DNA from: Escherichia coli
GTDB lineage: Bacteria; Pseudomonadota; Gammaproteobacteria; Enterobacterales; Enterobacteriaceae
Length of the DNA stretch: 64,000 nucleotides
Strand: one strand, 5' to 3'
Assembly: GCF_003334385.1 (NCBI RefSeq)
Contig: NZ_QOWN01000008.1
Positions 58,187-58,196 of the stretch are shown piece after piece. The position numbers were made by a program, and so were the translations under genes. Each line of letters opens with the position of its first letter. Within the stretch, counting starts at the first letter, position 1. The notes beneath the pieces were generated by a model. That model had not been told where the DNA came from and searched no databases. It worked only from the letters and a program-made list of their open reading frames with translations.

Positions 58187-58196
58187 CCCCCCCCCC
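58187..58196. repeat. Homopolymeric C10 tract upstream of yfdF
   Basis: Ten consecutive C residues ~120 bp upstream of the yfdF start; long G/C homopolymers are uncommon in E. coli. Confidence 0.9.

Follow-up and report, generated by a model that had tools for sequence, protein, structure and literature searches.

A length- and composition-polymorphic C10 tract upstream of yfdF/icaT in Escherichia coli, most likely a neutral slippage hot spot

The C10 run that lies between fadL and yfdF (icaT) in this Escherichia coli genome is probably a slippage-prone mononucleotide repeat that is essentially neutral and plays no part in regulatory switching. We studied it in the window (the whole 64 kb stretch of DNA analysed here) and compared it with complete E. 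coli genomes, public metagenome contigs and published transcript-end data.

The tract and its alleles

By direct reading, the C10 homopolymer occupies positions 58187–58196 of the window (CCCCCCCCCC on the + strand, G10 on the − strand), with GGATACT on its left and TGGCTATT on its right. It lies in the intergenic region between fadL (56606–57952, + strand) and yfdF (58319–59377, + strand), whose identities were confirmed by annotated matches in strain L73, K-12 J53 and MG1655. The yfdF ATG follows after exactly 122 nt, in agreement with the position of the run and the distance of about 120 bp given by an earlier, sequence-only reading of this DNA. That reading had also called so long a tract rare, and rightly so. 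No other run of C or G in the 64 kb window exceeds 6 nt; the next-longest homopolymers there are A8 and T8, and an i.i.d. model predicts 0.076 C runs of at least 10 nt. Across 1,346 Escherichia genomes, C runs of at least 6 nt average 6.22 nt (SD 0.57; PMC8928963), which makes a run of 10 rare; extrapolation from the same survey gives roughly one such run per genome.

The last two cytosines of the tract and the adjoining TGG form a Dcm motif (CCTGG, 58195–58199), and a second CCWGG (CCAGG) is found at 58177–58181, 14 nt upstream of it. Deamination of 5mC at the tract Dcm site would be expected to give CCCCCCCT-TGG, an allele present among the metagenome contigs, which may have arisen by this route. 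Very-short-patch repair synthesis starting from this Dcm site would enter the G run on the − strand, where, speculatively, it might raise instability.

The tract is polymorphic in both length and composition, with alleles C7–C13, CAC6–9, CAAC5–8, CAAACCACCC and CAACCTCCC. Pure-C alleles were counted in 5,426 complete E. coli genomes with exact queries comprising 14 nt of left flank, Cn and 46 nt of right flank (68–72 nt). The band of ≥99% identity includes ~86–100 partial alignments, which we subtracted as records minus records with ≥80% coverage; this subtraction was checked for C11 and C12 only, with 33 reproduced for C11 and 8 against 9 listed for C12. The resulting length distribution has a single peak, with C8 in ~288 genomes, C9 in ~900 (K-12 among them), C10 in ~135, C11 in ~33, C12 in ~9 and C13 in ~3. 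A pure run of at least 8 nt is present in only ~1,370 of the 5,426 complete genomes, ~4,300 of which bear the island that holds yfdF; a long pure tract is thus not maintained across the gene-bearing lineages (~1,370 of ~4,300). Among named strains, C10 occurs in three independent ATCC 8739 assemblies and in E24377A, C9 in the MG1655 reference (NC_000913.3 2,462,881–2,462,889), DH10B, J53 and C600, and C8 in E. coli W (two assemblies), KO11FL and LY180. Within sets of sibling isolates or replicate assemblies the allele is almost always the same. Aligned over 13 strains, the flanks were near-invariant, and the tract read C10, C9, C8, CAC9, CAC7, CAC6, CAAC6, CAAC5 or CAAACCACCC. The comparison of tract length across E. 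coli genomes proposed in the sequence-only reading therefore yields no invariant length, but a series from C8 to C13 together with interrupted forms.

Scanning with the conserved flanks recovered 16 alleles among 118 public metagenome contigs: C9 (24 contigs), CAAACCACCC (19), CAC8 (18), C8 (10), CAACCTCCC (9), CAC7 (8), CAAC6 (8), C10 (6), CAAC5 (6), CAC9 (3), CAC6 (2) and five others (one contig each). Interrupted alleles account for 66 of these 118 contigs. Every allele in the set is G-free and C-rich, and a total tract length of 7 nt occurs once; over contigs and complete genomes together the total spans 7–13 nt. Each uninterrupted run of at least 5 C came as a length series, whereas no length variants of CAAACCACCC or CAACCTCCC were found in the 19 and 9 contigs that carry them. 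Variation in pure C runs combined with constancy of interrupted alleles is a signature of replication slippage. Both C9 and C10 occur on either allele of a linked SNP at 58172, and C8, C9, C10 and C11 occur on backgrounds that are ≥99% identical.

In an alignment of 91 sequences, per-site diversity reached 0.18 at the tract against 0.016–0.022 alongside it. The tract differed in 17% of the pairs with identical 1.3 kb flanks and in 52% of the pairs with one or two differences in those flanks. It thus combines what is expected of a slippage hot spot, namely a long pure run, single-unit variants on near-identical backgrounds and stable interrupted alleles, and its proneness to length change, proposed from the sequence before any comparison, is supported by these population data. 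Shigella sequences carry related alleles: the interrupted CAAC6 in two contigs labelled S. flexneri with a 352-aa yfdF allele, C9 in one chromosome labelled S. flexneri with a 417-aa allele, and CAAC7 in an S. boydii contig.

Slippage as the probable origin of the variation

We propose that the site began as a C-rich, G-free decamer within the yfdF/icaT island, a state that CAAACCACCC and CAACCTCCC, which persist on the most divergent haplotypes, would represent. Some lineages would then have lost the interrupting A/T bases through substitution or deletion. Once a pure C run exceeded ~5–6 nt, slippage would add and remove single C:G pairs and would produce the series C7–C13, CAC6–9 and CAAC5–8. 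Estimated from our sample, changes at the whole site would be roughly as frequent as those at several hundred ordinary sites combined. The base-substitution rate of E. coli is near 2 × 10−10 per site per generation; combined with flank divergence it would place tract change, crudely, at ~10−7 per generation. Such a rate would be high enough for the tract to vary more, and to be sequenced less reliably, than any other position of the locus, and it would be far below that of classical contingency loci, for which ~10−5 per generation or more is expected.

Experimental work is consistent with this scheme, as E. coli indel rates climb exponentially with homopolymer length and 8-bp G:C runs are hot spots (PMC8510543). 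The mutation-accumulation indel lists in the supplements of that study hold no entry for the tract site. Most lineages have interrupted or short alleles, which suggests that mutability has not been maintained here. Scans of one genome per species with the tract flanks and with the MxiE-box region of yfdF (see below) gave 0 matches each; the E. coli representative in this set presumably does not have the island. These scans thus gave no outgroup that carries the island, and the direction of change proposed above is tentative.

Readings that give the tract a role, and the question of sequencing error

A role in transcription termination is the best-placed alternative to neutral slippage, although we consider it improbable. 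The tract would be part of a zone of Rho loading and termination that ends fadL read-through before yfdF, with the C run supplying YC dinucleotides well suited to the primary binding site of Rho. An inverted-repeat search identified a perfect 13-bp hairpin without a U tract at 57970–57998 (+ strand). The steady-state 3′ end of the fadL mRNA, mapped by Term-seq in MG1655 at NC_000913.3 2,462,694 (PMC7815308 suppl. file 1), corresponds to window position 58000, 2 nt downstream of this hairpin. A Rho termination region was called at 2,462,709 (+), window position 58015 (Rho score 5.38, p = 3.9 × 10−11; PMC7815308 suppl. file 2), and bicyclomycin raises the reads in the 800 nt downstream of 2,462,709 from 30 to 152 (PMC7815308). 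Rho-dependent transcripts are known to end just past U-less protective stem-loops, with rut sites immediately downstream (PMC6061677), an architecture that the fadL 3′ end recalls.

Combining the published Rho call (suppl. file 2) with C:G counts, we delimit a Rho-limited zone past the fadL 3′ end at 58015–58200 (+ strand), the tract lying at its distal end. The RNA is C-rich and G-poor at 57960–58060 and at 58140–58200 (C22:G8 per 60 nt in the latter), and the tract, G-free and C-rich in all alleles seen, is unpaired in the minimum free energy fold of the intergenic region (z = −1.78, no specific structure). If only C-richness matters to Rho, the length and composition of the tract would be free to drift. 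Against a part for the tract itself, the bicyclomycin effect spans 800 nt and could equally reflect de-repression of H-NS-silenced yfdF, and nothing links it to the tract. The C-rich stretch at 57997–58060 is closer to the hairpin and makes a more plausible rut site than the tract, 190 nt downstream of the hairpin. The features of a Rho terminator (bicyclomycin-sensitive read-through and C-rich, G-poor, unstructured RNA) thus apply to the region and not specifically to the tract, which would be one redundant element whose length variation would still be neutral.

Two further observations concern this region. The hairpin loop (57983–57985) occurs in two forms, ATA in 65 of 91 sequences and TAT in ~25 of 91; as TAT is the reverse complement of ATA, this looks like a flip of the loop within the palindrome. 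A second Rho termination region was called antisense within yfdF (NC_000913.3 2,463,820 (−), about window position 59126, score 5.9; PMC7815308 suppl. file 2), as is typical of H-NS-silenced AT-rich genes.

The tract belongs to an island of ~1.55 kb (57964–59508) that includes yfdF and its whole upstream region. B2-type genomes (~1,128 of 5,426) are without the entire segment from ~57964 to ~59508; in one of them, ABU 83972, the gap between fadL and mlaA is 61 nt and holds one common bidirectional terminator. GC content drops from 0.49 to 0.27 precisely where the tract lies. We considered whether the tract is the insertion junction of the island and ruled this out: the empty sites of B2 genomes place the left junction at ~57964, just past the fadL stop codon, so the tract is internal to the island.

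The non-coding sequence on either side of the tract is conserved. In the block at 58100–58262 (tract excluded), common polymorphisms affect 9 of 153 sites, against 67 of 522 in yfdF (p = 0.019) and 19 of 147 in the fadL-proximal spacer (p = 0.046). Relative to the rest of the island, polymorphism in the block is ~2.4-fold lower (π of 0.016–0.022 vs 0.05), which hints at a function of the region that the tract divides. Within yfdF, third codon positions have a π of 0.054 and first and second positions one of 0.049, a near-equality which indicates that the gene is close to neutral. From ~58850 onwards the yfdF alignment splits into two deeply divergent haplotype classes, and annotated yfdF products in other strains range from 343 to 417 aa and beyond. 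In FORC_042 an IS1A (locus 2248–2945, at about window position 58097) sits in the fadL–yfdF spacer, ~90 nt upstream of the tract. An Rfam scan of 57800–58500 returned only chance-level matches (best E-value 1.2), and the intergenic repeat search returned only the fadL hairpin. A small ORF that would switch frame across the tract (TTG start at 58071) was rejected because most sequences have a premature stop or have lost the start: TGC is changed to the stop TGA at 58172 in 49 of 91, and the start is lost in others.

The promoter that the tract might influence can be placed with some precision. The ORF list, annotation and literature identify yfdF as icaT (also gem1), a horizontally acquired, AT-rich gene that encodes a type III secretion substrate of Shigella, 352 aa long in the window. 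MxiE/IpgC activate it via a MxiE box, and H-NS silences it in both Shigella and E. coli K-12 (PMC9769918, PMC9241512, PMC3686432). Ordinary E. coli is without MxiE and IpgC, which are needed for this activation. In S. flexneri the functional yfdF MxiE box TGAGCGTTTTTTGATAG begins 73 nt before the ATG (PMC9769918 Table S2); the window has the identical box at 58246–58262 (+ strand), at the same 73 nt from the ATG and overlapping the −35 (TTGATA, 58256–58261), in keeping with reports that the MxiE box sits at −35 (PMC7762205). The box is nearly invariant (π = 0.001), although ordinary E. coli is without MxiE. In an S. boydii-type contig (417-aa yfdF homologue) the exact pattern TGAGCG[AT]TTTTTGATAG was not found, though the tract flanks are present, and the MxiE box of the S. 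boydii lineage may be mutated.

At MxiE promoters the box spans −49 to −33, and fragments from −57 to +11, which include 8 bp upstream of the box, suffice for regulated activity (PMC3299695). This geometry predicts a yfdF −10 (TATATT, 58282–58287) and a start at ~58293–58296 (together 58282–58296, + strand). In the portions of the supplements of the Cappable-seq, ROSE and M90T TSS papers that were accessible, the region has no entry for a yfdF transcription start. The tract ends 49 nt before the MxiE box and lies at about −99 to −108 of the predicted start. A change in its length therefore cannot alter −35/−10 or activator-to-promoter spacing, and given H-NS silencing, the absence of MxiE/IpgC from E. 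coli and a distance of ~100 nt, it has no obvious route to switching.

An effect from farther upstream is conceivable but quite unlikely. The length of the tract would set the distance or helical phase between the conserved block at 58100–58186 and the MxiE-box promoter and so adjust the leaky or induced expression of yfdF/icaT without turning it on or off; in a variant of the same idea, the tract marks the end of an H-NS filament on the AT-rich island. Conservation of the 58100–58262 block keeps such a variable-spacer role alive at low probability, since polymorphism is lower in both flanks of the tract than in the island's coding and distal non-coding sequence. The drop in GC content exactly at the tract would suit a filament edge, and the 7–13 nt range of total length covers more than half a helical turn. 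On the other side, the constraint signal is modest (p 0.01–0.05, without correction for population structure), no upstream-binding factor is known, the minimal −57 to +11 fragments suffice at MxiE promoters (PMC3299695), MxiE is dispensable once H-NS is removed, and S. flexneri, in which the gene is actually expressed, has a short interrupted run. The strongest form of this idea, a heritable expression rheostat in which tract length sets block–promoter phase or distance, or the edge of H-NS or Rho silencing, so that lineages differ in leaky icaT/yfdF expression, appears slightly less probable still.

It is very unlikely that the C10 of the window is itself a sequencing or assembly error that conceals a C9 or C11 allele. 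Over 31 kb no sequenced lineage is closer to the window than K-12, whose allele is C9, and assemblies of K-12 derivatives disagree at the tract: DH10B has C9 (at 27661 of its locus sequence) and NEB10-beta has C8 (at 20008), the sole difference between them in 40 kb, and C8 is also listed for NEB Turbo, Dam/Dcm, a DH5alpha assembly and one MG1655 assembly. The C8 alleles in K-12 derivatives reflect either repeated slippage in laboratory lineages or systematic under-calling of the homopolymer, and part of the length variation in databases may be technical rather than mutational. The C10 allele, by contrast, is common in nature (~135 complete genomes and 6 of the 118 metagenome contigs). Repeated ATCC 8739 assemblies agree on it, and strain L73, the closest match at the fadL–yfdF locus, has C10 as well, with an identical intergenic region and only 5 SNPs in 6.4 kb. 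The artefact that the sequence-only reading had allowed for is accordingly rejected for the C10 allele, on the strength of those ~135 genomes, which include the three ATCC 8739 assemblies and E24377A. Over 31 kb the window differs from DH10B by 34 mismatches, being K-12-like but not K-12; nor is it ATCC 8739, to which it is 95% identical. At window positions 61676–61691 argW runs straight into the dsdC side; the CPS-53/KpLE1 prophage is absent relative to DH10B, with a 16-nt overlap at the junction.

Least credible of all is a phase-variable switch in which slippage would reset −35/−10 or activator–promoter spacing and turn yfdF on or off: the length polymorphism is real, and a custom scan over tract variants found one promoter-like hexamer pair spanning the tract (TTTCCA...TATTGT, 58174–58206, + strand, 8 of 12 matches), but the validated promoter element lies 49 nt downstream, standard sigma-70 and terminator scans returned nothing at the tract, sibling isolates are alike, and the spacer of this weak pair is 21 nt with C10 and 20 nt with C9, reaching 16–18 nt only at a tract total of 5–7 nt, of which a total of 7 has a single representative among the 118 contigs. 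The tract is outside both the core promoter spacer and the activator–promoter interval, where a contingency locus would be expected to lie, and the phase-variable modulation of yfdF promoter spacing put forward in the sequence-only reading finds no support, the MxiE box and −35 being downstream of the tract.

Significance and comparison with known systems

The tract is most likely a fresh instance of a well-known kind, the neutral mutational hot spot. Few single positions in this region of E. coli are as unstable, or as hard to sequence reliably; the tract is therefore useful for checking the homopolymer accuracy of assemblies, calls for caution in variant calling when K-12 is resequenced, and could act as a fast-evolving marker among close relatives. 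The analysis leaves the attractive idea of phase variation at yfdF/icaT unsupported and places the tract relative to the promoter controlled by MxiE and H-NS and to the Rho-limited fadL 3′ region. If it were true that tract length tunes icaT expression, this would be a rare case of repeat-based regulation in E. coli and Shigella; to our knowledge, E. coli uses almost no repeat-based contingency loci.

The poly-C tracts of Bordetella pertussis fim2/fim3 and the poly-G/C promoter tracts of Neisseria meningitidis porA/opc are simple sequence repeats that vary transcription in a phase-variable or rheostat-like manner. They lie within the promoter and separate the −10 from the −35 or the activator site, so that each base alters promoter geometry. 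The yfdF tract resembles them in that a long C:G homopolymer precedes a virulence-associated gene with a dedicated activator and is length-polymorphic through slippage. It differs in lying 49 nt upstream of the activator box, beyond the region sufficient for regulated activity, and in being interrupted in most lineages. Measured against the Shigella MxiE promoters (Bongrand et al. 2012, PMC3299695), yfdF/icaT of the window shares its functional box letter for letter with S. flexneri, at an equal distance from the ATG; the architecture of these promoters excludes the C tract, and an upstream homopolymer is not reported at other MxiE promoters in the literature examined.

Rho terminators with a U-less stem-loop (Dar and Sorek 2018, PMC6061677; Adams et al. 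2021, PMC7815308) share with this locus the U-less fadL hairpin, the bicyclomycin-sensitive read-through right after it, and C-rich, G-poor RNA in which the C run is unpaired; unlike the rut sites of such terminators, the tract is ~190 nt from the hairpin and not immediately downstream. The mononucleotide-run hot spots of E. coli mutation-accumulation lines (for example the 8-bp G:C runs within the leuP/Q/V/T tRNA genes; PMC8510543) are likewise G:C runs of at least 8 bp that form local indel hot spots, with a rate exponential in run length and with no function assumed. Those hot spots were measured directly in mismatch-repair-deficient laboratory lines, whereas the activity of the fadL–yfdF tract is deduced from natural polymorphism. 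Unlike the runs in tRNA genes, the fadL–yfdF tract is non-coding, and changes in it are therefore not purged.
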